Below, in pieces: positions 15,607-55,321 of a stretch of 64,000 bases of DNA. The stretch is from contig NC_087245.1 in the NCBI RefSeq assembly GCF_037042905.1, positions 33,916,001 to 33,980,000 on the forward strand, written 5' to 3'. Every line of letters begins with the position of its first letter. Positions within the stretch are counted from its first letter, which is position 1. Source of the DNA: Lytechinus pictus. Its lineage: Eukaryota. The notes below the pieces were generated by a model. The model made no database searches. It saw nothing but the letters and a program-made list of their open reading frames with translations, and was not told the origin of the DNA. Made by a program: the position numbers and the translations under genes.

Positions 15607-15764
15607 GTGAGTACCGTATGCGTTCAAGTTTGTAGAAAGATTAGGTAAACAGGGAATGATATGAAATGCTTAGAAAAAAATATACCAGTTAGGTACTCGA
15701 AGAATGTGAAATGTGTTGATTTGTTATGCAACAATCACTTATATATTGATTGATTTTTGTTTAA

Positions 15765-17033: not shown

Positions 17034-17202
17034 GATGTGGAAGAGGTTCATCGTGGTGAAGGATTGAGTAGAAGAAATAGCAGTTGTCTCACGATGTATC
17101 AAACGTAGTTGGAAAGCGATGTTTCGTCTGCAAGCTGCTAGACTTTGTCAGGCAATGACCAAAGACGCTGCTGCGCACAGGTTATAAACCGTCAGCAAGG
17201 CA
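17034..17202 (-). mobile_element. Penelope-like fragment with degenerate hammerhead-like motif
   Basis: Minus strand cCTGACAAa-gtctagcagcttgcagac-GAAAc, flanked by the 12-bp direct repeat ATTATTAGTGTT (17022-17033, 17203-17214). Confidence 0.5.
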
Positions 17203-25863: not shown

Positions 25864-25909
<46 letters not shown>

Positions 25910-27763: not shown

Positions 27764-29074
27764 AAGGGGGCAGTCAGTTAGAGGACCTAAAAGATGGCGT
27801 CATTTTTCTCAATCGAACCGGGATATAAACGATCCAAAAGTCTCGGTGACTTTTACGTTTTTCTATGTTTAATATATTCTTCTTTCCATTCCCCCACTGT
27901 TCCCTTCCAATATAACATGGTGGCCACTGCCCAGATTAATACTCTATTGAATCTTTTAATCCACCTCATAACCAATGAATAAACTTCATGACAAGGAATC
28001 CAAATTAATTCATGAATTCGTTCTGGCAAGCTAGCCGAGAGCGAACAAAACGGCTTGACTTAAGGAGTGCTACACACCTGTTACAAGGTTCTGTGATGGG
28101 TCAGAAAGTATTTTGCCTATGCCAACAACAATATATGTTTCACTGATCAGGGGAGCATTTCACGACACAAGTTATTTTCACGGACTATTGTGATAAGCTA
28201 CTAAAATCCACACACCCCATTGGCTCAGAGCCAATAAGTCATTGAAAATCATTGACTATTTGTTTCATGAAATACCCCCCCCCTGCCTTGGTTATGTCCA
28301 GTGAAAATCCAGGTGGATAGAATATTTCGACGTCAAACAAATCTTTTGGTAGTGTTGCCTATTCAACTGACCGTTTTACTCAATTCGAATTTATATATCC
28401 GACTGAACAAAAAGGTGCATGGTAGGGGGCTGAAGGTGGGGGGATAGCCCCGAAGATTTTTTTTTATCAGTTGTTTAACAAAATACGAAGGGTTTAAGAT
28501 TATTGTGATCTCCATCAGTCATCTATGCAGACAAAGTGCTGATTTCGATATTTTATATTTTACTGAAATTAAAAAGGGAATATCTTGATACTGATGAAAC
28601 ACCAACGTCGTTCTGTCTGGGGTCAATTCTTGCACTCTCCTATCCTATCTGATCAAGGGGAGGGGGCGATCCGCCCCTTAATAAGAAGGAAATTATGTAA
28701 TTCTTTAATATTTGGGATACAAGGAAGATAGCATTAGCAATTGTTTCATGCCCCTCCCCATTTATGAAATGCAGTACCCGCCCCTAGTGACCAGTTACGT
28801 TCAGCTTGACTGGTTGTTTGGTCGTTGTTTGACGTTTCGCGATGCCGTGCAAAGGGATAGCATACCATGCTTAAACGTTGATACGTCGGAATAAACATCT
28901 TTTGTTCTAGCATGGCGCCACGGCTGACTTCCAAAGAAGACCGCATGGTCTGAATGCGAAGATGTATTCATCCGCGCCTTTTCAGCTCCTCTTCAGTTCA
29001 ATTGTATGTTTGGATGAGGGTTAGAATTCCACGTTTATCAGTTTCATCCTTCAAATTTAGACAATGAATGTCAT

Positions 29075-30850
29075 CTGAAAGGCAAGCAAAGAGGTTAGTT
29101 TATTCTCTAAATCTTTTATTTTTACGAAATATTATAAGGCATAAAGTGAATTTTTAATCCTTTTTGTTACTTGACACAGACAAAAATTTTGTTAATGTAA
29201 AGGGCATATAAGCATGTGAAGGCTATGGTCAAATGTATTTTACATTTACATTGAATCGTAAAGATAGATAATGAATCTTGTTTCTCGAAGGTTGAATTTC
29301 AATGTTATCATTAATTTACCTTTGCATTGGATTAAAACAGAAGGCGGAGCTTTATTTATTGAAGAGTGAACTTAAATTGAAATAATTGTGCGATACAGTA
29401 AGTCTTTGAATTCAAGTTTAACCAGGAGACAGTATCAACCAGAAATGGACAAGATGTCCACTCCGATAAATAAATGAAACTTACGACAAAAGTTTTTTGA
29501 AATCATATCTGATAAGACACAATATTTAAGATATCTGCCCCTAACAAAAAACGTTCAGAGCTGAAAGACTCCCATTTTGACTGGCCATTTGTATTTTTTT
29601 AGGATAGGTCGGCCTCGAAACAGCAGGAGAGATACTGAATAATTTGAGACAAGGAAGCAACTCGACAGATATTGTAAGATCAGCCGAGAACGGAAGGCAT
29701 GATATCTTCCTGCCGATAGCCTATCCTGTACTTAGAGCGGTGGAAGATCTTGGTAAGTAGATACTTTATAATGGAAGCATTTTCTACAACTTGATAACAC
29801 TTTTGTATCCTTTTTAGTATTCGATGCAATCTGGGCAAAATCGTGAATTTTGACACCCCCGCCCCCCCCCCAAAAAAAAAAAAAAGATTGGCACAACCTG
29901 GAAATAATATCAAAAGGATAATGAAAACAATTATATTGACTTGTAACCATCTTTAGAAAGTCAACTATTATATTATGTGCTTGAGGTTTCAGCAAAAATC
30001 AGCATATTTTTAGGGGGTCTTAAATCATTTAAGGTCTCGATTTTGAGAGAACGAAATTACCACTTGTTCACTGCAACCATCCTGCCTGTGGGGAATCTAC
30101 AGGTAGGACTATGGTATGCCAATGCTGTCATAGCTCACAATTAAAAAAATCATTAAAATATCACTTTTGTGACCAAAATCACTAATTTCCATACAGTTTT
30201 ATTTATTTTTCATTAGTAACTTGGGAATATTTTTTGTATTCACCAGAGCACTCAAAAACATGAATTTTGGGTGCAAAGTAATATGGCAAGAAAATTTTCA
30301 TTTTTCAATCTTTATTTTTAATTAAGAAAAAATTATTTAAAGAATCAAATTTACATTAGAGCAAAGCTATATGATAAATAGCTGTATTGGAAACTGACAG
30401 TGTGAGAAAATCAACAATTTGTCCCATAGAAAAAGAAAATTAGCCAAAATTGCCACCCTTATTTTGCCACACATGGATATGTAACTGAGAACAAGGTTAT
30501 ATCAAAACCTTGTTCATTGAATGAGTGGAAATTACATGAATATCATACGTTTTACACGTGCACGTGAAAATCCAGTAGCTTGTAAGGCATTTTCTGTTTA
30601 AAATTGCTCTAGTATGACAGTATTAAAAGCGTAAGGAAGGTATGACATTTATTTCCCCTCTGTTCATTGGCGGCATGAGGATGTGTGTGTGTTTTGGGGT
30701 TTTTTTTAAGCTGGGGCGCGGGCAGTGAACGGTAAATGAAAATGTTTTAGGACAAGAGAGGATGGATTTACTTTACATCTCTTTAATTCTTAAAAATTTC
30801 TGAGGGGGGCAATTTCCTCATGCGCCCCTCACCTTGTTGCCGCCACTGCC
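29075..30850 (+). repeat. Diverged direct repeat, copy A (copy B at ~54190-55290)
   Basis: Colinear shared blocks gaaaggcaagcaaaga, cctcgaaacagc..gagatactg, ttttacacgtgcacgtgaa and ttgccgccactgc. Confidence 0.7.
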
Positions 30851-33514
30851 CATCCCGCTCTCTTTCTTTCTCTCTTTCACATTCTTCGATCTCACTAACG
30901 CAAATTTTATATTGTAATTAGCTGCCAGTAAATATATGAAATAACAAAGCGAGGTATTTCAATTTTGCGTTCAACCAGAGAATTTCGTATATTTCACGGA
31001 TGCAAGCACACGCTCATTAAAAAAGACGTAGATTTCACGACCCATTGGCCGTGTTGACGGATGAAGTGTGTGGGGCACGTGCGGACTGTCATATCATTTT
31101 ACGCAGGCATGTCACTAAACACTGACTTTAAACCCATTTTCCAATCTCTTCATGGGGATACTCCGGGGGAGCGCTTTATCAACATTTTCGTCCGACAAGT
31201 TGAGGAATCAAACAACTTCCCTTTATTTTGATTGGCTAGGAAGCATTATTACAATGGTAACTGTCGGATAAAATATAAAATGGGTTTTGTCGGATAAAAC
31301 GTCAGACAAGTCCTTTCGTAAAATGCCCCCCCCCCCCCCCCGGCTGAAAATAAAAAGTTTTATCGAATAGAATAAAATCATATACCCCAACACACTGAAT
31401 ATTTGATCGACATCAGATAATGAACAACGAATTTGAAGTTATCTAAAATTGTCGCGTTATTTTCAAACAATTTTAAGCATGTCTTTATAAATATACAATG
31501 AGCTAGCTTAGCTGATGTCATCTCATGCATTTATAATTTTGTATTTTCTTTATTATGAAAGTATATTTTTTAACCTTTTCCTTCAATAATATAAAACCAA
31601 GATTGACTACTGGTTTCATTTGAAAGATATAAGTAGCAAGGACCAAGCAATTAAGTCAGTTTGCGAAGGTTGAATGATTTTAGTCAACTGTCGTGCATTC
31701 AGATTAAAATTATATCTTATGTGTAATTAAATAAAATAAGTTGAATTTGAAAATTTGATGACATTCTGACAACAGAGGGTTGGTATTGAATATTAAATTT
31801 TAGCACGAGGCCTAATATTCAATCCGTCATGAATATGTATTATAAAAAATGGGCTGATATTAAATACCCATTTTCACTTTTTATTGTATTCCATATTATT
31901 GTAACTATTTCATGATTTTGGTTTAATATAAACAAGAGTAAAATTTACAGCAAAATGCTGAACATTTCATCAAAATCTGAAAACAATTAACTGTTATTGA
32001 AATTTAAAGATTGGCAATATTTTATCCGACAATACTTTTATGAATTCGTCACGAATATTCATTAGGTGAGTTAATGTAATGCCCCCACTTTCTCCTTTCT
32101 TACATCATTACATGAAATCATAATTATTTCACATTTTAATATGCGTGTGTATAATATGTCTCCCTTATAATGAAATCAGCAAAATTATCTAATGCAATGA
32201 TTCAGCTGTCGTACCATTTTTTTTTATTGTTGGGGGACAAAATTTGAATAAACATATTTAATTTATTTATTTCATACAATAAAATATAAAAGTGGGGATA
32301 TGACATAAATTTGCTTATCAAATATTGAAGAAATGCATTGAACTTATTCACCGAAATAATGCAGATCTTTATCGTGTCATTAATTTGATATTCCTTGTCC
32401 AATTTTGATCAAATCTGCAGTGTTTTGTCCGTCTCAATTTTTTTATCTGTTCAAATCATTTTTCAGCCTGTAGCACTCCTTTGAATCAGGATAATACCAA
32501 TTTTGGCATAATAACGCCGATAACTAATTTTAATTACGTTTATAATCAATATTGTTCTGGTATTCACAATCCTTTTGTGTGTTTTATTCAATTCCACAGT
32601 TTTGACGGATTTGGGGAGTTCGCAAGTTATCCAGAATTCGCTTCGAAAGTTGGAAATGGAGATGGAATGAAAAGTACGACACACGTTTCCTCAATAAAGA
32701 CTTGGTCTGTGTTCTAATTCAGACATTGTCGATTTCACCACAGCCAAAATACCACACCTCCTCCAATGCCGTAACATCAGTGAGAAGTGCAGCCGGGGAG
32801 ACCTGGTGGCTTCAGATAAGAAGGCTGCATTTGTAGACTATGGACACGAAGAACGGAGAACTTGTTAGTAACATTCTTTGCGATACATTCCTTGCTCTAC
32901 TGCACAGGTGCATGTTACGCTATTGGCGCCAACTGCAGCATCCATCTCACCAAAATTAATGCGTCATATTTTAAGTCATGTGATCAAGCAGAATCCTTTC
33001 TCCCCGAGGACGGACAGGCACAACAGGTCCAACAATACAGAAGCTGCTCAAACGGGATATAATTTATATTTAAGAAGATATCTTTGGTAGTCGGCGAATC
33101 TTTATCCATTTGGAATATCAACAGAAAGAACTTGAGATACAGGATCACTTTGCGAACTTTTTCTCCGACAGAAACTCTTTAATTGTTATGTGCGGACTAG
33201 AAAACTATTTTCACGGCAGAGCTTCGCCGAGGCTAATCCGAACCCCAGCCCTAGCTCAGTCACGGGAGGTTTGTTGATGGGTCTCAAGACGGTTGTTCTG
33301 CCCTTGATTTATAAATTTGAACTTGATAATTTTGTGACTATCAGCGGACAGACATGTTTGTGGAGCTTTGGAGAAATATTTCTTTATTGGATCATATGAA
33401 AAATTGTGAAGTTGCTGAATATGTGTTGGATCATGGATGCATGACGACGCCGTCAAAGAGAGGACAGATGAACATGCTGAGACTGATCAAACGTTGCTGA
33501 ATGAGTGAGTCCTT

Positions 33515-33756
33515 TTACCCGTAGAACAATACAGCAATATCACTTAATGGTCTTAATGAAACTTTAAAATCTATGGAAACTGGTTAAGTTTAGGTTTTAG
33601 TGCCAGGATTCGTAGCGTAAGTTGATTTTATAGCCCCCCCCCCCCCCTCCCCGTAGGTGTAGAGTAGGCGCCTGGCCGAAACCAATTCTTTGGCCCTTTT
33701 CCATAAAATTTAATGTGTCATGTCAAGAAGATTGCTGTGTTGTCGCCTACGGGTAA
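33515..33756 (+). ncRNA. Conserved long RNA hairpin, copy 0 (most divergent)
   Basis: TTACCCGTAG/CTACGGGTAA, ACAATACAGCAAT/ATTGCTGTGTTGT, TATGGAAA/TTTCCATA, GCCAGG/CCTGGC. A poly-C run sits in the apical loop. Confidence 0.65.
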
Positions 33757-34974
33757 TGAAATTCAATTCATATTTTTTTTTAATGTTCGCCGAAAGCTTT
33801 ACAACTTTTTTTAATAAAAAGGTGGTAAGGCTTTTACTCTTTCCCGACAATTCTCGTAGAATTGTTCGTTGGTGTATTCAATCAGGGGCGGTTCCACTTG
33901 GAGAGGGCACCTATGCTCTGGGAACGATTTTTTTAACAGGATGTGCCGATTCAAATTTGACAAGCAAAAAAAAGGTTTCCCTTCACAACGAAGGTCATTT
34001 TGTTAACGATAAATTTAACAAGCAAAAAAAAAAGATTTCGCTACAAAATGAGGTGATTTTGGTTAAATTTATGTTATTTAGCATACCAGATTTCTAGGGG
34101 TGCTGCCTATGATGAATAACACACGCAGCACCCCCGCTTTCCAGAGCGAGGGGCAGGGGGCCTCACCCCCGATGAAAAATCAACACACAAAAGAAAAGAA
34201 AAAAAATAACGATAAGACAGTATTTAAGTTTTGGGTCGTTAAACTCTAAAGACCCCTATAATTGAATTGATAAAATAATACTATCATCGTTTTGGTAGTC
34301 TTGCCCCTAATACCCTGGCACCGCCCCTGAATGAAAAAAAAAACTTTCACATGCCAAGATATTGGCTGGTGAAATTTGCGTAAAAACGATCGAACGATAT
34401 TCGATATTTCGCATCCGAAACTGGACATCACGTTTGTCCATACCCGATCCGTATGATTACAAGGTGAGTTTCATTTAATTTTTGTTCTTGTTTTAATTTC
34501 GCATATTTCAATTGGGCATGGCAAGTATATTCGTTAACTTCTGAATACTACATTCCTTCATTAAGAATAAAGTGGTGCAGTGCACAGTCCCAAAATATAA
34601 AACCATACAGAATTATTTCGGTAATCCTCAATAAGTCAAGTATAATTGAGATGGATGGTTTATTAAATGATAGCTAAAATGAGTGACAAAGATCCAATAT
34701 TCAATGTCAAATGATGGAAAGGGCAATAGTTCAGAATTCCACAAACTGATATATGTTAGAACCTAGATCTTTTTGTTAATCCATGCTCAGATGGTAATTT
34801 CCGTAGATCTTGTTCTACAGTAGTCCCAAGCACAGTCCCACACACGTAATAATAGAAATAGATCTAGAGATCGTTACCATGGTTCCCATCGTGGATGGGA
34901 AAGGGCCATGGGTGCATAAAGTGGGGTAGGTGATGATAACGATAGACTACTTGACAGAAACCTATCTTTCTTTA

Positions 34975-36850
34975 GGTTTTTTTAGAACCTAACAGAAACA
35001 GAAGACCTTGCTGAAACAAACAGGTTTATGATGATGATTATTTAAAAAGTAATGAAAATGAAGTTTATTTAGAATCTATCTGATACAGAAATCCTCGCTA
35101 AAACCAATTTGTGAAGATGAGTATGAAAGTGATTATACTGATAATGTTATCAAATAGGGAAAAATGAAGTTTATTTAGAATCTATCTAATACAGAAAACC
35201 TTGATGAAACAAAAAGGTTTATTTTAAAAATGATGACCATAGCCAAGTATGAAAGACAATGTACAGTAAGGTATTTAGATTCTAACTGAAACAGAAAATC
35301 TTTGCGGAAACGAATAGGTTAATGATGATGAATATGAAATGGCAAAAAAACCTTGCTAAAACAATGGTTTATGATTGATCATAAAAATGATGATCATTGC
35401 CAAATATGAAAGAAAACGTATTGTATTTAGAATCTAACTGAAACAGAAAACCTTGCTGAAACAAAAAAAAAGGTTATTGATGGTGACTATAAAAGTGATT
35501 ATGATTATTGTTGTCCAATATAGAAGAAAATAAAGTTTATTTAGAATCTAGCTGAAACAGAAAACCTTGCTGAAACGAAAAGGTTTATGATGATGATGAT
35601 GATGATGAAAGTGATTATAATGATGATTATTGTCAAATATGACAGACGGTAAAGTTTATTTAGGATCTATCTGATACAGAAAACCTTGATGAAACAAAAA
35701 GGTTTGATTATTATAAAGATGATGATCATTGCCAAATATGAAAGAAAACGTATTGTATTTAGAATCTAACTGAAACAGAAAACCTTGCTGAAACAAAAAA
35801 AAAGGTTATTGATGGTGACTATAAAAGTGATTATGATTATTGTTGTCCAATATAGAAGAAAATAAAGTTTATTTAGAATCTAGCTGAAACAGAAAACCTT
35901 GCTGAAACGAAAAGGTTTATGATGATGATGATGATGATGAAAGTGATTATAATGATGATTATTGTCAAATATGACAGACGGTAAAGTTTATATAGAATCT
36001 ATCTGATACAGAAAACCTTGCTGAAACAAAAAGGTTTGATTATTATAAAAATGATGATCATTGCCAAATATGAAAGACGCTTTAGTGTATTTAGAATCTA
36101 ACTGAAACAGAAAACCTTGCTAAAACGAATAGGTTTATGATGATTATTATTAAATGACAGAAAACCTTGCTGAAACGAAAAGGTTTATGGTGATTATTGT
36201 ACAAATAAATGATCATTGATAAATATGAAAGACAATGTAGTATATTTATAATCTAACTGAAACAAAAAAAACCTTGCTGAAACGAAAAGGTTTTTTTTAT
36301 GATAAAAATGATTATAATGATTATTGTCAAATATGACGGACGATGAAGTTTATTTAGAATCTAATTGAAACAGAAAACCTTGCTGAAACGAAAATGTTCA
36401 TGATGATGATGATTTTTATGATTATTGTCAAATATGAAATAAAATTAAATTTATTCATAATCTAACTGAAACAGAAACCCTTGCTAAACAAAAAAAGATT
36501 ATGATGAATACTATGAAAGTGATTATAGTGATGATATTTGTCAAATACGAACAAAAATTAAGTTTATTTAGAATCTATCTGATACAGAAAACCTTGCTTT
36601 AACAATAAGGTTTATGATGAATGGTTTATCAAGATGATTATTCTAAAAGTAATGATGATCATTGTAAAACATGACATACGATGAGCTTTATTTAGAATCT
36701 AACTGATACAGAAAACCTTGCTGAAACAAAAAGGTTTATTATGATTATGAAAGTGATTTGATGATTATTGTCAATTATAAAAGACAATGAAGTTTATTTA
36801 GAACCTTGCTGAAACCATGGATCTACTACTAATGTCCATGCTGAAACAAA
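34975..36850 (+). repeat. Intronic ~110-bp degenerate tandem array
   Basis: Unit tttatttagaatctaactgaaacagaaaaccttgctgaaac..ggtttatgatg, with a near-exact 333-bp higher-order duplication (35391 vs 35724). Confidence 0.9.
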
Positions 36851-37167
36851 GAGTTCCGTGATGATTGTAAAAGTGATGATAATGATCTTTCCCAAATATA
36901 AGACAAAGAAGTGTGCTTTATATGCTAGAGTGCATAAGTCATTTACGTGATCAACAATTATTATCAAATTCAAGCTATTTCATTAACCTTGTTCTTATTG
37001 TGTGTTTATGTTTCAGGTATGGCATGCTAAAAAAAATCTACATGATACACTGACACGTTTAGGAGACGTTTGGATTGTAAAACAAAAAAAAATCGTTGCA
37101 TTTCTTTTCGGCCTGTTGACCTGAGTTAACCCCTTTAACGTGGGCAAAATTCTGCGAGAATTATTTA

Positions 37168-37384
37168 CCTGTAGAACAATACAGTAATATCACTTCATGA
37201 TCTTAATGAAACTATGAATTTTATCGAGCTTGTTTGTTGAGGGCAAGTTTAGTGTCAGGATTTCTGGGTAAAATTCATACATTAGGTCCCCGTTAGGCGC
37301 CTGACAGTTTAAGCTTGTTCTTAAACTAGCTCGTTAAGATTTATTGTTTCATGTCAAGAAGATTGCTGTATTGTCGACTAAAGG
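37168..37384 (+). ncRNA. Conserved long RNA hairpin, copy 1 (exon-like unit 37017-37633)
   Basis: Nested complementary blocks with many G-U pairs. The unit is bounded by a TTTCAG acceptor and a GTAAGT donor. Confidence 0.65.
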
Positions 37385-37791
37385 ATGCTTATTTTCAACG
37401 TGATTGGGATAGTTCGACTCAAAATTGTTGAGGTTATGCCTGATTTAGGCCAAACTATCGATAGCTTTTTTGCGTTCTGACGTTATACTTTTGATTAGCA
37501 AAAATTATATAAAAAGTCGTTGATTCGTTAATTCTCTTCGTGCGATCGTATGTTTCTCGCTTTTAATGGTCATTCTCAATCTCAATTTGCACATCATAAA
37601 TCATCGATCGTCTCGTTCGTTTGAATGATCGCGGTAAGTTTAAAATCATTACCACTCTTTGAAAATCTCTTTACTGATATATTTGTCTATTGATTTATTG
37701 CTATAATTCAAATTTCGTAGTTTGGATGTAGGCCTAACATTTTTATGTAGAGCAACATTATAATGCACGTACATGTAATGCTGTGATGGAA

Positions 37792-38094
37792 ACAGTTCTT
37801 AGTAAAATTATCTTAAATCTTATAAATATGAAAAGGCCTTCAGAACTAGTGTTATACAAAACGCTGCATTTGATACAGTTCTTAGTAAAATTATCTTAAA
37901 TCTTATAAATATGAAAAGGCCTTCAGAACTAGTGTTATACAAAACGCTGCATTTGATACAGTTCTTAGTAAAATTATCTTAAATCTTATAAATATGGAAA
38001 GGCCTTCAGAACTAGTGTTATACAAAACGCTGCATTTGATACAGTTCTTAGTAAAATTATCTTAAATCTTATAAATATGAAAAGGCCTTCAGAA
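37792..38094 (+). repeat. 83-bp tandem repeat, ~3.7 near-identical copies
   Basis: acagttcttagtaaaattatc... starts at 37792, 37875, 37958 and 38041. Confidence 0.95.
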
Positions 38095-38792
38095 CAACTA
38101 GTTATATACAAAGCGATGAATTTGATAATGATGAAACTAGAGCTAGTAGCGACATTAATATGATACTAGATGATACTTGCAGGTGATGGAAGATATCCAA
38201 TATTCAGCATAAAAAGGTGGATAAGGACAAGATTTGTTCAGAATTTCACAACTTCATGTACTTTAGGCCTATATCTTTTCTTGATATGCTCAGATTGAAT
38301 TTTTTCAGTCCCACACACGTAATGAAGAAATGGATTTTAGAAGCCGTTGCCATGGTGAATAGGCATGATAGGAAAGAGCCATAGACCCGTAAAGTACGAA
38401 AATGAGAACAGTTGCAGCTTACCTGACAAAAGCTAACTTTCTTCGGTTATTTAGAAACTAACTGAAAAGAAAACTGCTGAAACAAAGGTTTATGATGATA
38501 ATGAACATGATGAAAGTGATATTGATGATCATTGTCAAATTAAAATAACACTGAAGTTTGCTTTATATTCTAGATCTAGTGCATAATTTATATATTAGAT
38601 TAAGAAACCATTATCAGAACCATGCTTTTCATTAACATTGATATTTTTGTGTTTATCTTTCAGGTATGGAATGCTTAGAATATTTACATGATACAAGAGG
38701 CGTCTACTGTAAAAAAAAGGATCGTTGCTTATATTATCGGCCTGTCGACCTTAGTAAAAATGGTAAACATCATACATGAGCAAGAATAAGTT

Positions 38793-39011
38793 ACTTGTAG
38801 AACAATACAGTAATATCACTTAATGATCTTAATGAAACTATGAATTTTATCGAGCTGGTTTGTCAAGGCCAAGTTTAGTGTCAGGATTTCTAGGCAAAAT
38901 GTATACATTAGGTCCCCCTTAGGCGCCTGACAGTTTAAGCTTGTTCTTAAACTAGCTCGTTAAGATTTATTGTTTCATGTCAAGACGATTGCTGTATTGT
39001 CACCTAAAGGT
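38793..39011 (+). ncRNA. Conserved long RNA hairpin, copy 2 (unit 38664-39258)
   Basis: Same fold as copy 1, with splice-consensus boundaries. Confidence 0.65.
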
Positions 39012-40202
39012 TGCTTATTTTCAACGTGATTGGGATAGTTCGACTGTCTCGAAAAAACAGTTGAGGTCGGACTCGTTTGTTTTTTTGCGTTCTGACGTTA
39101 TACTTTCAATTAGCAAAAATGCGTTGTAAAAAGTCGTCATACGTTAATTCTCTTCGTGCGATCGTATGTTTCACGCTTTCTCGCTTTAAATCGTCATTCT
39201 CACAGCTCAATATGCAATTCATTAGTAATCGATAGTCTCGTTCGTTTAAATGATCTCGGTAAGTTTAGATTAATTAATACTCTTTTCATATTACATTTTA
39301 AACATCAGTCACTTCATTCGTTTGATTTAGTGTTGTAATTCAAATTCCGTAATTTGAATGTAACATTTTTATATTGAACCACGTTTCCATGCACGTGCAT
39401 GTAATGCTACGATGGAAACAGTTCTTAGTAAAATTATCTTAAATCTTATAAATATGAAAAGGCCTTCAGAACAACTAGTTATATACAAAGCGCTGAATTT
39501 GATAATGATGAAACTAGAGCTAGTAGCGACATTAATATGATCCTAGATGATACTTGCAGGTAATGGAAGATATCTATTATTCCAGCATCAAAAGGTGGAT
39601 AAGGACAAGATTTGTTCAGAATTTCACAACTTCATTTATTTTAGGCCTAAATCTTAATATGCTGAGAAGGAAATTTTTGTAATTCTTATTCGACAGTTTG
39701 AAGCTATAACAACAGTCCCACACATGTAATGACGAAATGGATTTTAGAGGCCGTTGTCATGGTGAATAGGCATGATAGGAAAGAGCCATAGACCCGTACA
39801 GTACAGTAAGATAATGATAACAGTAATAGCCTACCTGACAAAAGCCAACTTTCTTCGGTTATTTAGAAACTAACTGAAAAGAAACCTTGCTGAAACAAAA
39901 AGGTTTATGATGATTATGAACATGATGAAAGTGATAATTGTCAAATAGAAATAACACTGAAGTTTGCGTTATATTCTAGATCTAGTGCATAATTTATATA
40001 TTAGATTAAGAAACCATTATCAGAACCATGCTTTTCATTAACATTGATATTTTTGTGTTTATGTTTCAGGTATGGAATGCTTAGAATATTTACATGATAC
40101 AAGAGGCGTCCGCTAGATTGTAAAAAAAGGATCGTTGCTTATGTTATCGGCCTGTCGACCTGAGTAAACATGGTAAACCTCATACATGAGCAAGAACAAG
40201 TT

Positions 40203-40421
40203 ACCTTTAGAACAATACAGTAATATCACTTCATGATCTTAATGAAACTATGAATTTCATCGAGCTGGTTTGTTGAGGCCAAGTTTAGTGCCAGGATTTC
40301 TAGACAAAATTTATAGATTAGGTCCCCCTTAGGCGCCTGACAGTTTAATCTTGTTCTTAGACTAGCTCTTTAAGATTTATTATTTCATGTCAAGACGATT
40401 GCTGTAATGTCACCTAAAGGT
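40203..40421 (+). ncRNA. Conserved long RNA hairpin, copy 3 (unit 40070-40667)
   Basis: Basal stem ACCTTTAG/CTAAAGGT and the same fold. Confidence 0.65.
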
Positions 40422-41649
40422 TGCTTATTTTAAACGTGATTGTGATAGTTCGAATGTCTCGAAAAAACAGTTGAGGTCGGACTAGTTTGTTTTTTGCGTT
40501 CTGACGTTATACTTTCAATTAGCAAAAATGCGTTGTAAAAAGTCGTCATACGTTAATTATGTTCGTGCGATCGTATGTTTCACGCTTTCTCGCTTTAAAT
40601 CGTCATTCTCACAGCTCAATATGCAATTCATTAGTAATCGATCGTCTCGTTCGTTTAAATGATTTCGGTAAGTTAGATTGATTAATACTCTTTTCAGATT
40701 ACATTTTAAACATCAGTCTCTTCATTCGTTTGATTTAGTGTTGTAATTAAAATTCCGTAATTTAAATGTAACATTTTTATATTGAACCACGTCTCATGCA
40801 CGTGCATGTAATGCTATGATGGCAATATTGTTCTTAGTAAAGTTATCTTGAATATTGGAAATATGAAAGAGGCTTTAAACTAATCGGTTAATACAAGAAG
40901 CTAGATTTGATAATGATGATAATCAACCTAGAGGCAATATGATATTAGGTGATTACAAGAAGTGGCAAATATCTAATATTCAGTGGTAAGAGCAGTTTAG
41001 AATTTAACAACTTTATATATTTTAGTCCTAGATCTTTTTTTTAAGATGCTCAGATGGGATTTTCGCAATTCTTGTTCGGCAATTTGAAGCTATAACAGTC
41101 CCACGCACAGTCCCACACACGTAATGGTTTAGAGACCGTAGCCATGATGTTACTCAAAGAGTCATGGATAGGAAAGGGCCATAGGCCTGTAGAGTGGGGA
41201 AATAGCAGTCAAAGCTTACATGACAAAAGCCTAATTTCCATTCGGTTATTTAGAACCTAACTGAACCGAAACTTTGCTGAAACAAGAAGGTTTATAATAA
41301 ATATAATACTCAAATTTTATATAGCGCGAATTAAAGTTAAGTCTATTTACGATTACGACAGTGATGATAATGATGATGATCATTGTTAAACAAGACAATG
41401 AATTTGTTTTATATTCTAGATTTAGTGCATATTGCATTTATGCTTATTATATTTAGAAACAATTATCAGAACCATGCTATTTCAATTACGTTGATCTATT
41501 TTGTGTGTTTATATTTCAGGTATCGAATGCTCTGAATACCTACGTAATACAGGAGGCGTCTAGATTGCGATAAAAACATAGTTTCTTATATTACCGGCCT
41601 GTCGACCTGAGTAAAAATGGTAAACATCATACATGAGCAAGAACACTTT

Positions 41650-41868
41650 ACTTGTAGAACAATACAGCAATATCACTTCATGATCTTAATGAAACTATGA
41701 ATTTTATCGTGCTGGTTTGTAAAGGTCAAGTTTAGTGTCAGGATTTCTAGGCAAAATGTATACATTAGGTCCCCAGTAGGCGCCTGACAGTTTAAGCTTG
41801 TTCTTAAACTAGCTCGTTAAGATTTATTATTTCATGTCAAGAAGATTGCTGTAATGTTAACCACAGGT
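41650..41868 (+). ncRNA. Conserved long RNA hairpin, copy 4 (unit 41520-42108)
   Basis: Basal stem ACTTGT/ACAGGT and the same fold. Donor GTGAGT at 42109. Confidence 0.65.
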
Positions 41869-43019
41869 TGCTTATTTTCAACGTGATTGGGATAGACTGT
41901 TTCGAATAGATGTTGAGGTTGTGCCTTATTACTATCTTAGCGTTTTTTACCTTATGACTTTAGATCTTCAGTTAGCAAAACTTCCGCTGTTAACAATCGT
42001 TCATTCGTTAATTCTCTTCGCGTGATCGTACGTTTCTCGCTTTTAATCATCCTCATCAGCTCGATAAGCACATCATAAATCATCGACCGTCTCGTTCGTT
42101 TGATCATGGTGAGTTTAAAATCTCTAACAATTTTTTGGATTTTTTTTTTACAAGCACCGATTATTGCTATAAGTACATATATTTATTGATTTATTGCTGT
42201 TATTCAAATTTTCGTAATTTTAACTTGAAATTTTTATTTAGAATATTCTCATGCGCATACATATAATGTAGTGATTGAGACATTGTTCTAAAGTGTTTGG
42301 TACCGCAAAATCGTTCAATAGCCATTAAAACGGACATACTGATGCTTTTCGACATGCACTCATCGAAGTAAAATCGCATGAATTAATAGAACGCTAGAGC
42401 GAAACAATATATTATGGAACCGAAAGAGACAATGGACGCTAAACGGCGAGCTGTGATTGTCAGTTTGTTCGATTTAAGGCTATTTTATGACATTGTTCTT
42501 AGTAAAATTATTTTGAATTTTATACTAGTTATACAAAGCACTCAATTTTATAATGGTGATTATGAAACTATGGTAGCAAAAACATTGATTTGATATCAGA
42601 TCTATTTCACAAATAGAAATAACGAGTAGGCCTAGAATACATCAATTGACAACATTCTATGGAAGCTTATTTTATATTCTAGATCTATATGGTATATGTA
42701 ATTATAATTCAAGTATAATCAAAATGCCACTCAATCATCAGAAAAAAAAATATGTATCTTCTTGTTACAGATCTGTAATGGACGGTCAATACATCTTCGC
42801 GCAGTTTTGGAGAGAAGTTTCCGCAACAATGTTGAATAGGAAAAAACTAAAAATAAACCAAGCTCTGCGCAAGCCACATGCCTATGGAACAAAAAGGAAT
42901 GTCACAGCAACGCACATATAACTGAACATTTTATGAAATATCTAAAGAGGAATAATGGTATTAGAGTGAGGTTGAAATTAGGTTATGATCGACATCATAG
43001 AGTAACACGGGACATTTCA

Positions 43020-46000
43020 TCTACAACATTTTGTCGCCTTTTCATCTACAAATCTTCGTCAACCTTTCTTCAAATATCTACCACTCTTTGTCTCCCTTTC
43101 ATCAAATATCTACCACTCTTTGTCTCCATTTCATCACAGAACAAGTCACCTTTCATCTACCACTCTTGTCACCCTTTCCTCATAGAGCATCAAGCCACCA
43201 ATTATCTTCCTTTCATATATCCCTTTCATCAAAGATCATCAATTCACTTTTCGTAACCTTTCATCAAAGAGCATCGAGTCACTTTTCGTCACCCTTTCAT
43301 CAAAAGCATCAAGTCTATTCATCTGCCTATCATCAGAGAGCATCAAATTCACCCTTTGTCAACCTTTCATCAAAGAATATCAAGTCACTCTTCATCAACC
43401 TTTCATCAACGAGCATCGTAACTTTTCGTCACCCTTTAATCAAAGACCATCAATTAACTTTTCGTCACCCTTTCATAAAAAAACACTAACACCTTTCGTC
43501 ACCCTTTCATCAAAGAGCACTCAGTCACTCTTCGTCACCCTTCCATCAAGTCATCATTCATCACCCTTTCAACAAAGAGCACCAAGTCTCTTTTCGTCTC
43601 CCTTTCATCAAGAAGCATCAAGTTGCCCTTCGTCACCCTTTCATAAAAGAGCATCAAGTAACTTTTCGTCACCCATTCATAAAAGAACACGTCTCTTTTC
43701 GTCTCTCTGTCATCAAAGTGCATCAATTCGACCTTCATCTCCCTTTGTTACCCTTTCATCAAAGAGCAACGAGTCACTCTTTGTCGCCCTTCGCCACCCG
43801 TCACCCTTTCATAAAAGAGAACCAAGTTATTTTCATCACCCTTTCAACAAAGAGCATTAAGTCTCTTTTCGTCTTCTTTTCATCAAGAAGCATCAAGTTG
43901 CCCTTCGTCACCCTTTCATCAAAGAGCATCAAGTCACCCTTCGTCACCCTTTAATCAAGGAGCGAAGAATCACTCTTCGTCGCCCTTTGTCACCCTTTCA
44001 TAAAAGAGAACCAAGTCATTTTCGTCACCCTTTTACCAAAGAGTATCAGGTCGCCCTTTGTCACCCTTTCATCAAAGAGCATCAAGTCACTCTTCGTTGC
44101 CCTTCGTCATCCTTTCAAAAAAAAGAGCAATTCATTTTTCATATACCACTCTCCATCTCCCTTACATCAAAGAGCATCAATTCACTTTTCGCCACCCTTT
44201 CATAAAAAGAGCATCAAGTCGCCCTTCGTCACCCTTTTATCAAAGAAGATCAAGTCATTTTCGTCACCCTTTCGTAAAAAAGCATCAACTCTTTTTGTAT
44301 CCCGTCATCAAAGAGCAGAAAGTCGCCCTTCGTCACCCTTTGATCAAGGAGCATCAAGTCAATCTTCGTCACCCTTTCATCAAATAGCAACATGTCAGTT
44401 TTCGTCTCCCTTTCATCAAAGATCATCAAGTCGCTTTTTATCTACCACTCTTTATCTCCCTTTCATCAAAGAGCATCAAGTCACTTTTCATCTTCCTTTC
44501 ATCAAAGAGCATCAAGTCACTTTTCGTCTCCCTTTCATCAAAGAGCATCAAATCGCCCTTTATCCCCCTTTCATCAAAGAGCATCAATTCACTCTTCGTT
44601 GCCCTTCGTAATCCTTTCAAAAAAGAGCAATTCATTTTTCATCTACCACTCTTCATCTCCCTTACATCAAAGAGCATCAATTCACTTTTCGCCACCCTTT
44701 CATAAAAAAGCATCAATTCGCCCTTCGTCACCCTTTTATCGAAGAAGATCAAGTCATTTTCGTCACCCTTTCGTAAAAAAGCATCGACTCTTTTTGTATC
44801 CCGTCATCAAAGAGCATAAAGTCGCCCTTCGTCACCCTTTGATCAAAGAGCATCAAGTCAATCTTTGTCACCCTTTCATCAAATAGCAACATGTCAGTTT
44901 TCGTCTCCCTTTCATCAAAGATCATCAAGTCGCTTTTTATCTACCACTCTTTATCTCCCTTTCATCAAAGAGCATCAAGTCACTTTTCATCTTCCTTTCA
45001 TCAAAGAGCATCAAGTCACTTTTCGTCTCCCTTTCATAAGAGAGCATCAATTCACTTTCGGCACCCTTTCATAAAAAAGAATCAAGTCGCCCTTCGTCAC
45101 CCTTTCATCAAAGACAAACGAGTCAATCTTCGCCGCCTTCGTCATCCTTTCATATAAGAGCACCAAGTCATTTTTCGTCAACCTTTCTTAGAAGAGCATC
45201 AAGTATCACTTTTCGTCACCCTTTCATAAGAGAGCATCAATTCACTTTCAGCACCCTTTCATAAGAAAAGAATCAAGTCGCCCTTCGTCACCCTTTCATC
45301 AAAGACAAACGAGTCACTCTTCGCCGCCTTCGTCATCCTTTCATATAAGAGTACCAAGTCATTTTTCGTCAACCTTTCTTAGAAGAGCATCAAGTATCAC
45401 TTTTCGCCACCCTTTCATAAAAAGAGCATCAAGTTGCCCTTCGTCACCCTTTCATCAAAGAGCATAAAGTCGCTTTTTATCTACCACTCTTTATCTCCCT
45501 TTCATCAAAGAGCATCAAGTCACTTTTCATCTTCCTTTCATCAAAGAGCATCAAGTCACTTTTCGTCTCCCTTTCATAAGAGAGCATCAATTCACTTTCG
45601 GCACCCTTTCATAAAAAAGAATCAAGTCGCCCTTCGTCACCCTTTCATCAAAGACAAACGAGTCAATCTTCGCCGCCTTCGTCATCCTTTCATATAAGAG
45701 CACCAAGTCATTTTTCGTCAACCTTTCTTAGAAGAGCATCAAGTATCACTTTTCGTCACCCTTTCATAAGAGAGCATCTTTACTTTCGGCACCCTTTCAT
45801 AAGAAAAGAATCAAGTCGCCATTCGTCACCCTTTCATCAAAGACAAACGAGTCACTCTTCGCCGCCTTCGTCATCCTTTCATATAAGAGTACCAAGTAAT
45901 TTTTCGTCAACCTTTCTTAGAAGAGCATCAAGTATCACTTTTCGCCACCCTTTCATAAAAAGAGCATCAAGTTGCCCTTCGTCACCCTTTCATCAAAGAG

Positions 46001-48165
46001 CATAAAGTTACTCTTCGTCACCCTTTCATCAAAGATGATCAAGTCATTTTCGTCACCCTTTCGTAAAAAAAAGCATCAAGACTCTTTTTGTATCCCGTCA
46101 TCAAAGAGCATAAAGTCGCCCTTCGGCACCCTTTTATAAAAGAGCATCAAGTCACTCTTCGTCACCCTTTCATCAAATAGCAACATGTCAGTTTTCATCT
46201 CCTTTTCATCAAAAATCATCAAGTCGCTTTTTATTTACCACTCTTCATCTCTCTTACATCAAAGAGCATCAATTCACTTTTCGCCACCCTTTCATAAAAA
46301 AGCATCAAGTCGCCCTTCGTCACCCTTCCAATAAAGTGTGTCAAGTCGCCCTTCGTCACCCTTCCATCAAAGATCATCAAGTAACTCTTCGTCACCCTTT
46401 TATCAAAGATCATCAAGTCACTCTTTGTTGCCCTTCGTCATCCTTTCATAAAAGAACATCAAGTCACTTTTCATCTACCACTCTTCATCTCCCTTACATC
46501 AAAGAGCATCAATTCACTTTTCGCCACCCTTTCATAAAAAAGCATCAAGTCGCCCTTCGTCACCCTTCCAATAAAGTGTGTCAAGTCGCCCTTCGTCACC
46601 CTTCCATCAAAGATCATCAAGTAACTCTTCGTCATCCTTTCATATAAGAGCACCAAGTCATTTTTCGTCACCCTTTCATAAAAAAAGCATCAAGACTCTT
46701 TTTTGCATCCCGTCTTCAAAGAGTAAAAAGTCACACTTCGTCTCCCTTTCATCAAATAGCATCGAGTCACTTTTCGTCTCCCTTTCATCAAAGAGCATCA
46801 ATTCACTTTTGTCCCCTTTCATAAGAGAGCATCAATTCACTTTCGGCACCCTATCATAAAAAAACATCAAGTCGCTCTTCGTCACCCTTTCATCAAAGAA
46901 CATCAAGTCACTTTTCATCTACCACTCTTCATCTCCCTTACATCAAAGAGCATCAATTCACTTTTCGCCACCCTTTGATAAAAAAGCATCAAGTCGCCCT
47001 TCGTCACCCTTTCAATAAAGAGTATCAAGTCGCCCTTCGTCACCATTTCATCAAAGATCATCAAGTCTCTTTGTTGCCCTTCGTCATCATTTCATAAAAG
47101 AACATCAAGTCACTTTTCATCTACCACTCTTCATCTCCCTTACATCAAAGAGCATCAATTCACTTTTCGCCACCCTTTCATAAAAAAGCATCAAGTCGCC
47201 CTTCGTCACCCTTTCAATAAAGTGTGTCAAGTCGCCCTTCGTCACCCTTCCATCAAAGATCATCAAGTCACTCTTCGTCATCCTTTCATATAAGAGCACC
47301 AAGTCATTTTTCGTCACCCTTTCATAAAAAAGCATCAAGACTCTTTTTTGTATCCCGTCTTCAAAGAGTATAAAGTCGCCCTTCGTCACCCTTTCATCAA
47401 AGAGCATCAAGTCACTCTTCGTCTCCCTTTCATCAAAGAGCATCAATTCACTTTCGTCCCCTTTCATAAGAGAGCATCAATTCACTTTCGGCACCCTATC
47501 ATAAAAAAAACATCAAGTCGCCCTTCGTCACCCTTTCAACAAAGAGCATCAAGTCGCCTTTCGTCACCCTTTCATCAAAGAGCAACGAATCACTCTTCGC
47601 CGCCCTTCGTCACCCTTTCATATAAGAGCACCAAGTCATTTTTCGTCACCCTTTCTTAAAAGAGAATCAAGTCTCGTTTCGTCCCCCTGTCATAAAAGAG
47701 CATCAAGTCTCCTTTTGTTTACCGGTCATCGAAGAGCATCAAGTCGCCCTTCGTTACCCTTTCATGAAAGAGCATAAAGTCACTCTTCGTCACCCTTTCA
47801 TAAAAGAGCATCAATTCATTTTTCTTCATCCTTTAATAAGAGCATCAAGTCTCCTTTCGTCTCCCCCCTGTCAAAGAGCATCAGGTCGCCCTTCCATCAA
47901 AGACCATCAAGTCGCCCTTCGTCACCCTTTCACCAAAGGGCATCAAGTCACTTTTCATCTCCCTTTCATCAAAGAGCATCAAATCGCTCTTCATCCCCCT
48001 TCAAAGAGCATCAATTCACTTTCGTCACCTTTTCATCATAAGAGAGCATCAATTCACGTCCGGCACCCTTTCATCAAAGAGCATCAAGTCTCTTTTCGTC
48101 ATCCTTTATTAAAAGAACATCAAGTCGCCCATCATCACCCTTTTGTCAAAGAGCATCATGTCATC
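43020..48165 (+). repeat. ~5.1-kb minisatellite of a 36-bp unit with higher-order duplications
   Basis: Consensus CGTCACCCTTTCATCAAAGAGCATCAAGTCGCCCTT. Longer periods of about 499 (44381/44880), 540 (44941/45481) and 240 bp. Confidence 0.97.
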
Positions 48166-48649
48166 CTTCTTCTAGCGAAAAGGGTAAGTTATAACTGATA
48201 GTTTTAAACGATACATCTTGGTTTGACATTAATCAAATCTATAAAAGGGTACAATATATGAAACACATATTTAACGTGTTCAATGATGTCCATTTTTAAC
48301 AAATATGAGCAGGAACGAAATGATATTAGATGAAAAAGTAAATTTTCATGTTTCAGTAAATTTGAATGCATCCCCAGATATTTCAAATTTGATTAAGAAA
48401 GTAAAATATTGTCATTAACATATTTCATTTATTAAGTTTAGTCTCTGATTTTGAAAGGAAGATCGAAAATATATTTGGTCGGGCCAATTTAGAATGAAAA
48501 TGCCTATATATATATATATATATGTTATTTGATGTTTATTTAGCAGATAAAATAAGAGTCATATGTAATCACTTTTTAATATGTCATAAATTTGACAATA
48601 CTGTTTTTTTATTTACTCAGGGGAGCTTTTAATATTTCATTCTGATATA

Positions 48650-51600
48650 TCATTCTCTTTACAGACTAGATGTAACTGAACCTAATAATGATAATTCTTA
48701 TCTACCAAGGGTAGCCACTTCACTCCAGCATTTGTATCCTTTGTAATTAAGTTAATTTCGTCCTTTTTTCCCTCTGATAGCCAGCTCAGCTTTCAAAAGG
48801 AGAGTTGCTGACAAAAGACAGAAGTCCAATTTCAAAATATGTATTTCAATGGTATGATTGGTTGCTATTTCAGCTGTAATTCGCTTGCATTTCCGTTTCT
48901 CATAACTTCTGATACATTCTCTTTTCAGGCTGGATGAGTATTTACGCATGATATATATCATGGCTCATATCAATCAATTAGTAGCCAGTTAGGCTTTACT
49001 GCAGGTCTTCCAGTGGCCCTAACAAACTTTCAATTGCCCAGTTAAGCAAATTGATTTTTTGGCCGCCATCACGTGATACTGCATCATACAGAGGGAGAGG
49101 CGCCTTTAAGAAAGAAAAAGCATTCGAATTTTATTATGTGGACTTCCATGGCATAATCATTATTCTATTTTCAGACTGGATGCGTTTTAATCATATCATT
49201 AATGTATCTTTCTTATTTACCAAGGATAGCCACTCTAGCTTTTGTTAGTCTTCCATATGGTCCTGTTAAGCATTAAGTTATTTCCCGTATATAGTGATTC
49301 ATATTTACCCAAGGTAGCCTCTCCGTGGTTTTGTTGGAGATCTTCTACCTGTATTTCTAACAGAATGAAGTATATGTTCATTTATCTAGGACTCTTATTA
49401 TCCAAGGTATATAGCCACTTCGGGTATTAAAGATGGTTTCTAATGTTGATGAGTTTTTTTTTCATTCTTATAAAGCGGATATGGTGACAAGAAAACAGAA
49501 AGACCCATTTTAATTCGATATGGTGCAGTATACTTATTGAAATGTAAAATTATTCTGGATAATCGTTTATTTCATTTTCTTTTACACTTTAACACCAAAA
49601 TCTTATTCTCTTTCAGGATTGGATACCTTTAACGCAGTGCAATTAATGGCCGTTGGTGACAGCATTTCAATTTGCCCTTCTTAAAGACTTTCGGCATGCA
49701 GGGTTGCGACTTCAGTCTTTACTACCGGACTTTGAGCGTACTCCCCTTTCACAAAGTATAATAATAATAATAATAATTACCATTATTTAAAAAGGGTTCT
49801 TATTTACAGAGGGAATTCACTCAAGCTAGTGCAACCGGGTTCTACTTAATGTTTGTCCCGAGTACCCATTTTAGCTTTTTATAGGTGGTCGGCTTCCAAT
49901 CACCCAGTAATGACGACATATTACTTGCTTATAATGGCTTTTATTTACCCAATGTAGAAACTTTGACATTTATGGCCGCAACTCAGTGACACTGCAACAT
50001 TTGAAGGCAAATGTCCTACTTTTAATAGTATTGTGTGAAATTCCATGTAACTTGTGATTATTATTCTCCTTTCAGGCAGGTTGCATTTTAAGCATTTTAT
50101 CGATGTCTTTTATTTTTCTAGAAAAGCCCCTCTAGGTTTTCTTGGCCGTTTTGCACCAGGCACTGCTTGAACAAAGTTTTTATTCCCGTTAAAGAGTAAC
50201 ACTTTCTTTTATTAGGGGATGATTGCCAACAAAATGAAATGTATTTTCTTCCTTAATTAGCCACTATGGGTTTTTGTGATTTTCTAATGGAGATTAATAT
50301 GATAATTTCTCCTTGTCATTTTGGAGGGTAGTAAGGAGACAAAAAAAAATTGATGACATGTGATTCAATATACTTCTTGAAATGTAAAGTTATCAGGAGT
50401 TGTTACTTTTTGTTTTTTTGCTTGCTATGTCGAAATTTTATTCTCGTTCAGGATTGGATACCTTTAATGCAGGTGACCTGTTGCGACTTCAGTGTTTACT
50501 CTTGGGCTACTTTCTGCGTACTTACCTTTCACAAAATAAAGTCATTATCCATAAACTAGGTTCTTATTTACAGAAGGAATCAATTCCAGCCAGTTGCAGT
50601 CGCCGAGCAGGCTTTGTTAAATGTTTGTTCTGAGTAGTTACTTCATTTTTCCCCCTACGGTCATATAACTTTTTTATATCAAATTCTATTTATCCAGTGT
50701 AGCAACTGTGACTTTAAATTTAGGCGACATTCTAATTACAAAAGTTTCTATTCCTGTTAAAAGTGACCCTTGTTTTTCTCAGGATGCAGAGTTGCGACGT
50801 CAGTGTTTACTACGGGACTTTGAGCGTACTCCCCTTTCACAAACTATAATAATAATAATAATTACCATTATTTAAAAAGGGTTCTTATTTACAGAGAGAA
50901 TTCACTCTAGCTAGTGCAACCGGGTTCTACTTAATGTTTGTCCCGAGTACCCATTTTAGCTTTTTATAGGTGGTCGGCTTCCAATCACCCAGTAATGACG
51001 ACATATTACTTTCTTATAATGGCTTTTATTTACCCAATGTAGCAACTTTGACATTTCTGGCGGCAACTCAGTGACACTGCAACATTTTAAAGCAGAGGTC
51101 CTACTTTTAATAGTATTAAGTGGAATTCCATGTAACTTGTGATCATTATTCTCTTTTCAGGCAGGTTGTGTTTTAAACATATCGATGTCTTTATTTTCTC
51201 AGGAAAGCCCCTCTAGGTTTTCTTGGCCGTTTTTCACCAGGCCCTGCCTAACATGAAGTTATTATTCCTGTAAAAGAGTAACGCTTTCTTTTATTAGGGG
51301 GCCACTTCGGATATTTGTTTGCAATCCCCTAGCTGTATTGCTCACAAATGAAATGTATTTTTTTTCCTTAATCAGCCACTATGTGTTTTTGTGATTTTCT
51401 AATGGAGATTAATATGATCATTTCTCTTTGTCATTTTGGAGGTTGGGAAGGAGACAAAAAATCAATTTTAATGTCATATGATTCAATATACTTCTTGAAA
51501 TTTAAAATTATCAGGAGTTGCATTTTCATTTTTGCTTGCTATGTCGAAATGTTATTCTCGTTCAGGATTGGATACCTTTAACGCAGTTAACCAGTTGCGA

Positions 51601-55290: not shown

Positions 55291-55321
55291 CTTCTCTCTT
55301 TCTCTCCCCCTCTCTCCCCCC

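Follow-up and report, generated by a model that had tools for sequence, protein, structure and literature searches.

Five homologous long hairpins in a tandem, apparently non-coding locus of the sea urchin Lytechinus pictus

In the sea urchin Lytechinus pictus, a stretch of 64,000 nt of contig NC_087245.1 (RefSeq assembly GCF_037042905.1, positions 33,916,001 to 33,980,000; hereafter "the window", with coordinates counted from its first letter) contains a tandem repeat with a unit of ~1.4–1.6 kb and one hairpin per unit, giving five homologous, rod-like hairpins of 220–243 nt. This hairpin family is real, constrained and tandem, and it is apparently undescribed. On the basis of a short basal stem, a conserved basal duplex, an adjacent bulge and a long paired extension, its shape is likened to that of giant microRNA (miRNA) precursors (pre-miRNAs). 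Our tentative reading, to which sequence features and folding models lend a probability of roughly 0.4, is that the five copies constitute a tandem array of giant pre-miRNA-like hairpins, hosted by a spliced, non-coding transcript of RNA polymerase II (Pol II); membership of the giant pre-miRNA class is not established. In a preliminary description of this DNA, the only role given to the hairpin was to stand in place of a poly(A) signal, while its anatomy points to a substrate of RNase III enzymes (Drosha/Dicer).

Predicted fold of the five hairpins

All five hairpins are located on the plus strand. Copy 1 (33515–33757) is the most diverged, carries a poly-C insertion in its apical loop and folds with a minimum free energy (MFE) of −74.7 and a z-score of −5.6; it is followed by copy 2 (37165–37387; MFE −81.4, z −9.6), copy 3 (38791–39010; z −10.6), copy 4 (40201–40420), which has the weakest fold (MFE −59.2, z −3.9), and copy 5 (41648–41867; MFE −73.2, z −6.8). 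These z-scores were obtained on the plus strand with 40 shuffles per segment, and the hairpin range of −3.9 to −10.6 compares with −1.7 to +1.1 for seven flanking segments; with 200 shuffles, copy 3 reached −7.3 on the plus strand versus −3.75 on the minus strand. That five hairpins exist, as stated in the preliminary description, is thus confirmed by their folding and by a two-arm sequence pattern with five matches as compared to none in 100 shuffles. A sixth copy was not found in the window, where nhmmer returned five plus-strand matches and the next non-self match had an E-value of 0.36. In a scan for stems over 413 sequence segments, copies 2–5 came out on top (78–88 pairs; next 61), while copy 1 was not ranked.

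Each copy forms a rod of ~80 pairs including 6–13 G-U pairs, with longest helices of 9–15 bp, which is unlike a perfect inverted repeat and speaks for a pre-miRNA-like molecule; the consensus fold comprises 87 pairs, with 91.4% of the cells paired. In copies 2–5, the plus strand folds better than the minus strand by 10–27 kcal/mol, and this better-folding strand is also the strand of the splice signals described below, which equally supports the favoured reading. The predicted anatomy consists of a basal stem of 7–10 bp, a 1×3 internal loop, a 13-bp duplex and a paired extension of 148–167 nt; the basal stem and the 1×3 loop are common to copies 1–4, while copy 5 differs. Two conserved 4-nt bulges are predicted on the 5' arm of the consensus structure.

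Conservation and covariation

Among copies 2–5, 30 of 220 hairpin columns are variable and no insertions or deletions (indels) are present, in contrast to the exon flanks, which have 103 variable columns out of 341 together with 20 indel events (Fisher p = 4e-6, a value that is indicative only, since columns are not independent and the copies are related). It is the older pairs that give rise to this contrast; between copies 2 and 5, the hairpin is 91% identical and the exon flanks are 68–81% identical. Copy 1 differs from the consensus of copies 2–5 at 61 of 215 aligned bases. Across all five copies, invariance is concentrated at the base of the rod, where it extends to 21 of 22 positions in the 5' arm and 20 of 22 in the 3' arm, versus 7–9 of 22 at mid-stem; ~40 nt of the 5' arm are conserved, as are the bulge sequences. 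The paired extension has diverged with respect to copy 1, yet it is 87–100% identical among copies 2–5.

Two-sided changes affect 8 of 87 pairs, as compared to 2.9 ± 1.3 in shuffles, a level that was reached in 1 of 500. Against a position-matched null, the real bases of copy 1 folded at least as well as random substitutions at the same sites in 114–120 of 120 cases, and in 111–120 of 120 in the reverse direction. In copy 4, 4 of 12 differences from the consensus break pairs, and this copy may be decaying. Overall, selection on the hairpin, or constraint relative to its flanks, is supported by these comparisons of sequence.

The exon flanks of copy 1 cannot be aligned with those of units 2–5, with alignment scores within the range of shuffles. 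Nevertheless, part of the neighbouring intron aligns (71%), and the distance from the 3' arm to the donor is kept: it amounts to 264–272 nt in copies 2–5 and to 733 nt in copy 1, of which ~283–285 nt are left upon subtraction of a miniature inverted-repeat transposable element (MITE). Copy 1 is, therefore, regarded as an old duplicate and not as a separate insertion. We infer that an ancestral unit—acceptor, 130–150 nt, hairpin, ~250 nt, donor and intron—was tandemly duplicated; copy 1 would have split from the rest long ago, and copies 2–5 would have arisen more recently.

Predicted units, introns and coding potential

The splice-like signals named in the preliminary description are indeed present as predicted sites, namely pyrimidine-rich AG motifs at 32599, 37016, 38663, 40069, 41519 and 42770 and GTRAGT at 34464, 37634, 39259, 40668, 42109 and 48184; between 32 and 43 kb, GTRAGT occurs eight times on the plus strand and never on the minus strand. 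These sites delimit predicted plus-strand exons or units 1 (32600–34463; donor AAG/GTGAGT), 2 (37017–37633; acceptor CAG/GTATGG, donor GTAAGT), 3 (38664–39258), 4 (40070–40667) and 5 (41520–42108), and a sixth predicted exon without a hairpin (42771–48183). The 5' boundary of unit 1 is uncertain, given that the proposed start at 32600 corresponds to one of at least four candidate acceptors upstream of hairpin 1 (32599, 32722, 32907 and 33171). Unit 1 is lengthened by the MITE (33883–34329), which is 447 nt long, has 9-bp terminal inverted repeats and is accompanied by an AAT target duplication; pieces related to it were also observed at ~4355–4455, 22057–22164 and 26532–26674.

Second acceptor candidates are found in copies 3–5 (39205, 40614 and 42059), with none in copy 2; one in copy 1, at 33859, was discarded, as it is not positionally homologous after removal of the MITE. 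The acceptors at 37017, 38664 and 40070 read CAG/GTATGG and so resemble 5' splice sites as well; this feature is weaker in copy 5, and the acceptor at 42771 does not have it. Use of CAG/GTATGG as a donor together with the second acceptor would place the hairpin in an intron, which is possible in copies 3–5; recursive splicing at CAG/GTATGG may be considered a minor option.

The introns had been described as mutually homologous. This holds for introns 2–4 (72–92%, depending on the segment) and partly for intron 1 (69–71%), but not for intron 5, which aligns in short pieces near its start only and, when an alignment is forced, at 40–49% for the greater part of its length. Predicted intron 1 (34464–37016, plus strand) is expanded by a tandem array of ~100–120 bp units at ~35000–36800, composed of an intron motif that introns 2–4 have as well.

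The absence of a shared or long open reading frame (ORF) was likewise confirmed; in the joined six-exon model of 9676 nt, the longest ATG-initiated ORF has 164 aa and lies inside an array of 36-mers. This 36-bp minisatellite (43221–48163) makes up most of the predicted, non-coding exon 6 and consists of ~132 units with 68% matches, 12% indels and higher-order periods of 191, 202 and 499 nt. It shows a strong skew of C over G, and its three plus-strand frames are largely free of stops but frameshifted, with 51% of the anchor spacings being multiples of 3. Units 1 and 3, translated in 12 frames, matched no Pfam family, and one of the two array ORFs gave two matches below the cutoff; protein searches returned no credible homolog, the one match being repetitive (29%, E 1.8e-5). 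An array of protein-coding exons was rejected in view of the lack of a conserved open frame or of homologous proteins and of the indels in the exon flanks, and the locus looks non-coding.

The hairpin as a putative giant pre-miRNA

If the favoured reading is correct, Microprocessor would crop the hairpin ~10 bp above its base, adjoining the 1×3 internal loop, and the conserved 5'-arm bulges, instead of a terminal loop, would constitute its docking site. Dicer would then cut a single duplex from the base, thereby excising 148–167 nt. The candidate small RNAs are located at 33721–33743, 37352–37374, 38978–39000, 40388–40410 and 41835–41857 in copies 1–5; the likeliest guide would be the 23-mer of the 3' arm (e.g., 37352–37374), with a register uncertain by ~2 nt, and with multiple copies, more of one novel small RNA would be produced. 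Positions 1–8 and 10–18 of this 23-mer are identical in all five copies.

Several observations speak against such an assignment. The register of the 23-mer was taken from stem geometry and picked after inspection of the alignment, and the seed-like pattern depends on it. The 5' strand of the candidate duplex is interrupted by a bulge of 4 nt, and in copy 1 the upper half of the duplex pairs poorly; below the basal stem, pairing goes on in copies 1–4, which makes the basal junction ambiguous. Strand preference is absent from copy 1 (−74.7 on the plus versus −76.1 on the minus strand), and copy 5 has similar z-scores on both strands. In terms of conservation, the hairpin is no better kept than the exon flanks between copies 3 and 4 (93% versus 93–96%), and the copies could have been homogenised by gene conversion. 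The upper 3' stem is 100% identical in copies 2, 3 and 5, as compared to 82–95% for the basal 3' arm in copies 2–5, and there is a second conserved block near the apex, which a model with one miRNA duplex does not predict; the near-perfect upper 3' stem is equally compatible with a hairpin RNA (hpRNA) yielding several small interfering RNAs (siRNAs), with a protein-binding structure and with gene conversion. The evidence for covariation comes from five related sequences only, and in the MAFFT alignment just 6 of 14 doubly changed pairs of copy 1 are still paired. No known seed family matches in the MirGeneDB rows covered, while the main examples in the giant pre-miRNA study (PMC12553114) belong to conserved families. 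Finally, transcription, splicing and processing of the cluster are predicted from the DNA sequence.

One host transcript or tandem mini-genes

The preliminary description offered two layouts, a single long non-coding RNA (lncRNA) and a row of two-exon genes. Conservation supports its core, in which a hairpin under selection belongs to a plus-strand unit that is non-coding and probably spliced; the second layout loses two of its arguments and gains another one. A TATA-like tract had been proposed for every copy and is found in copy 2 only, with TATAWA occurring at a background of ~0.47 per 250 nt of the window. The absence of AATAAA after the hairpin, claimed for copies 1–4, holds for copies 2–4 and, in addition, for copy 5; copy 1 has AATAAA at 33813, 56 nt past its hairpin. 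The other promoter-like motifs between hairpin and donor were recovered, with TGATTGG, TGACGT and TTCTCTTC in three of the five copies each.

The gain concerns CpG dinucleotides. A stretch of 125 nt that terminates at the donor contains, in each of the five units, 10–13 CpG at an observed/expected ratio (o/e) of 2.0–3.0, compared to 0.70 for the window; in unit 1, this segment (34339–34463; 10 CpG, o/e 2.0) is a possible promoter and first exon, and the segments of units 2–5, ending at 37633, 39258, 40667 and 42108, have 12–13 CpG (o/e 2.5–3.0). These peaks are the best support for the model in which each CpG-rich segment comprises a promoter and a short first exon, so that the cluster would be a row of two-exon mini-genes with 3' ends made by Microprocessor cleavage at the hairpin. 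This layout, which is compatible with any role of the hairpin, is a serious possibility that we nevertheless consider unlikely. Of 511 non-overlapping windows of 125 nt, only six have at least 10 CpG, five of them being the pre-donor segments; among 28 plus-strand GTRAGT sites, at least 10 CpG precede only the five pre-donor ones and that at 5506, whereas the three donors at NUP42 exon ends have 1–2. The single further case, a CpG-rich segment at 5391–5506 ending at a GTAAGT donor, is possibly a non-coding first exon. Copy 1 has the CpG peak despite its unalignable sequence, copies 2–5 have no AATAAA, and 3' ends made by Microprocessor are known (as outlined in PMC6150625). However, copies 2–5 are duplicates, and the CpG evidence thus amounts to about two independent observations; a sliding scan found ten other windows that match or exceed the peak of copy 1; TATA-like and CCAAT-like motifs are present in only one and three of the five copies, respectively, and copy 1 has its AATAAA. 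Moreover, NUP42 could not serve as a positive control, because its first coding exon was not found in the window, and duplication of internal exons is a simpler account of the layout. Provided that the locus is transcribed, one host RNA spanning all copies is, on balance, preferred, and the alternative of separate mini-genes, each with a first exon terminated by one of the donors, is given somewhat less credence.

The most elaborate version of the favoured reading combines both aspects. It posits a lineage-specific deuterostome cluster of giant pre-miRNAs with Dicer-excised regions of 148–167 nt and a novel seed, amplified as mini-genes, in which 3' ends would be created by Microprocessor just upstream of the CpG-rich promoter of the next copy; as a whole, this scenario is improbable.

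Alternative roles of the hairpin

In a different function, the hairpin would be a protein-binding or editing structure kept intact in a modular lncRNA composed of five stems and a 5-kb exon of 36-mer repeats, a scaffold built from repeats similar to Xist or roX, with no small RNA being made. Such a role is unlikely, although it ranks first among the alternatives for the hairpin itself. It would account for the conservation of the bulges and of ~40 nt of the 5' arm, which exceeds the needs of one 22-mer, as well as for the second conserved block at the apex, the lack of indels across 220 nt in copies 2–5 and the large, strand-skewed repeat exon downstream. It accounts less well for conservation that peaks at the base, over a stem of ~10 bp, where RNase III products would sit; furthermore, Rfam gave no lncRNA match at the gathering score, and this genome has many tandem minisatellites, which do not in themselves imply a function.

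Slightly less probable still is an hpRNA-like locus, in which Dicer would cut the whole stem of 80–90 bp into several phased endogenous siRNAs (endo-siRNAs), comparable to hp-CG4068 of Drosophila, whose tandem copies derive from one shared transcript. Constraint over the whole stem of copies 2–5, beyond the base, would be explained in this way; tandem, spliced hpRNA clusters of variable copy number are known (PMC10317233), and gene silencing by Dicer-substrate RNAs is reported for Lytechinus variegatus (PMC11230266). On the other hand, the helices reach 9–15 bp at most, the mid-stem sequence is not conserved with respect to copy 1, and homology of the arms to a gene or transposon was found neither in the window nor, for unit 3, in Pfam.

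The least probable explanation is a neutral foldback or MITE remnant within an ordinary tandem duplication, with splice-like signals copied from one chance or once-functional pair and nothing expressed. In its favour, a perfect inverted repeat of 10 bp forms the ends of copy 1, with TA bordering its inner 7 bp on either side (in this copy only); the exon flanks of copy 1 show no relation to the other units, and other foldback elements are present in the window. Against it, the hairpin termini are more variable than the inner duplex, while terminal inverted repeats of a MITE are expected to be the best-conserved part, the hairpin evolves more slowly than its flanks and without indels, copies 2–4 show a plus-strand G-U bias, and a homologous intron and an equally spaced donor accompany copy 1 in collinear order, which argues against an independent insertion.

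Database and literature searches

For the giant pre-miRNA-like hairpins, no counterpart was retrieved. Rfam 15 gave no match at the gathering score, and none of 12 weak matches at E-values up to 10 lay on a hairpin; searches with the window, the cluster and three hairpin pieces were equally without a match. In MirGeneDB 3.0 (the first 14,689 of 19,725 table rows, longest loops first), 58 Strongylocentrotus purpuratus rows compared by eye contained no match, and the longest loop among them was 44 nt; in the mature, star and loop columns of the table rows covered, three arm motifs of 9–10 nt had no match, and six motifs of 7–8 nt had no matching 5' end among the first seven matches listed for each. 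Resemblances to miR-10/100, miR-31 and miR-33 were dropped because of a mismatch in the seed or arm of the S. purpuratus sequence, as was that to miR-281, for which there was no Rfam match; selenocysteine insertion sequence (SECIS) and C/D small nucleolar RNA (snoRNA) readings were also considered and dropped. The two-arm pattern had no match in viral contigs and four in metagenome contigs, which were rejected, the best alignment being one 25-nt piece (E 0.096) and none folding into a rod. Six arm motifs did not occur in the main texts of the literature searched. In listings of sea urchin publications on miRNAs and lncRNAs, no account of the locus turned up; novel urchin miRNAs listed in the supplements of PMC3048847 and PMC6039759 or in the tables of PMC12553114 could include a match.

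Neighbourhood of the cluster

Upstream of the cluster lies NUP42, of which six exons were placed at 11188–19022; the ORF at 18570–19022 is 99% identical to the L. pictus NUP42-like protein. Residues 28–458 of L. pictus NUP42 are encoded in the window, and residues 1–27 were found nowhere in it; the first intron might be very long, or the assembly might differ. From ~23 kb to the end of the window, inspection of the ORF list by eye revealed no obvious gene, except for LINE-like fragments near 57–59 kb. The sole tRNA called by ARAGORN is a tRNA-Arg(TCG) at 3801–3872. A large foldback element occupies 24722–27755, with inverted arms of ~1.3 kb (87–97%) around a core of 234 nt, and a dispersed repeat is present in two diverged copies (~70%) on either side of the non-coding cluster (29056–30878 and 54182–55314).

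Downstream of predicted exon 6, an array of decayed repeats (48600–52400) carries about ten acceptor-like motifs on the plus strand only and includes a 1.1-kb duplication (49696–50783 and 50784–51913; 86%). Between 48201 and 54000, TTTCAG occurs 11 times on the plus strand and not at all on the minus strand, and the AT skew is −0.16. It possibly belongs to the same non-coding transcript, as its 3' part; alternatively, it would be an array of exon-edge repeats.

Implications and comparison with known systems

If validated, the cluster would extend the giant pre-miRNA phenomenon to echinoderms and would imply that urchin miRNA catalogues are incomplete, with excised regions more than three times as long as the longest sea-urchin loop among the MirGeneDB 3.0 rows listed. 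It would also offer a natural series of paralogs (intact, diverged and possibly decaying) in a tractable animal, in which the contribution of bulges to Microprocessor cropping of a long stem could be tested. Should the hairpin instead be a protein-binding module of a repeat-built lncRNA, it would still represent an undescribed constrained RNA structure.

In PMC12553114, giant pre-miRNAs are presented as canonical precursors with very long Dicer-excised regions, which combine a conserved duplex with a basal stem of ~10 bp; cropping requires an unpaired region adjoining the dicing site, and the paired extension is divergent in sequence. They have been surveyed in arthropods and are also on record for a few other non-deuterostome lineages, and among 13,788 deuterostome entries, that study counts one loop of more than 50 nt. 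The same source warns that standard pipelines miss such loci. Like dipteran mir-989, Daphnia mir-375 and lepidopteran mir-12 as depicted in that work, the urchin hairpins have a conserved basal duplex amid diverged flanks, a predicted 5'-arm bulge beside the predicted dicing site and a paired extension of similar size; a comparable basal stem of ~10 bp is suggested, albeit with an ambiguous basal junction in copies 1–4 and a different form in copy 5. Unlike these, they come from an echinoderm, match no known seed family in the rows covered, are present in five tandem copies and have an extension that is conserved among recent copies.

With respect to layout, the locus resembles the primate miRNA cluster C19MC (PMC2691840) in that tandem units, each with one hairpin and a repeated exon, reside in a non-coding, spliced Pol II host—host and splicing being predicted in the urchin—and for C19MC, too, the number of transcription units is given as unresolved. 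C19MC, however, has 46 normal-sized, intronic, Alu-flanked hairpins, in contrast to five giant, predicted exonic ones. Drosophila hpRNA clusters such as hp-CG4068 and hp-tHMG (PMC10317233) share tandem long hairpins, non-coding transcripts and changing copy number, but are Dicer-2-dependent and often derived from a target gene or transposon; for the urchin hairpins, no such source was found in the window or, for unit 3, in Pfam, and their conservation is focused at the base. Finally, as in the lnc-pri-miRNA genes that end by Microprocessor cleavage, summarised in PMC6150625 (citing Dhir et al. 2015), the hairpin would lie close to the 3' terminus of a spliced, non-coding unit that has no poly(A) signal (predicted here for copies 2–5), yet the urchin locus differs from these genes in forming a tandem row with a putative promoter ~120 nt behind each hairpin and in the AATAAA of copy 1.

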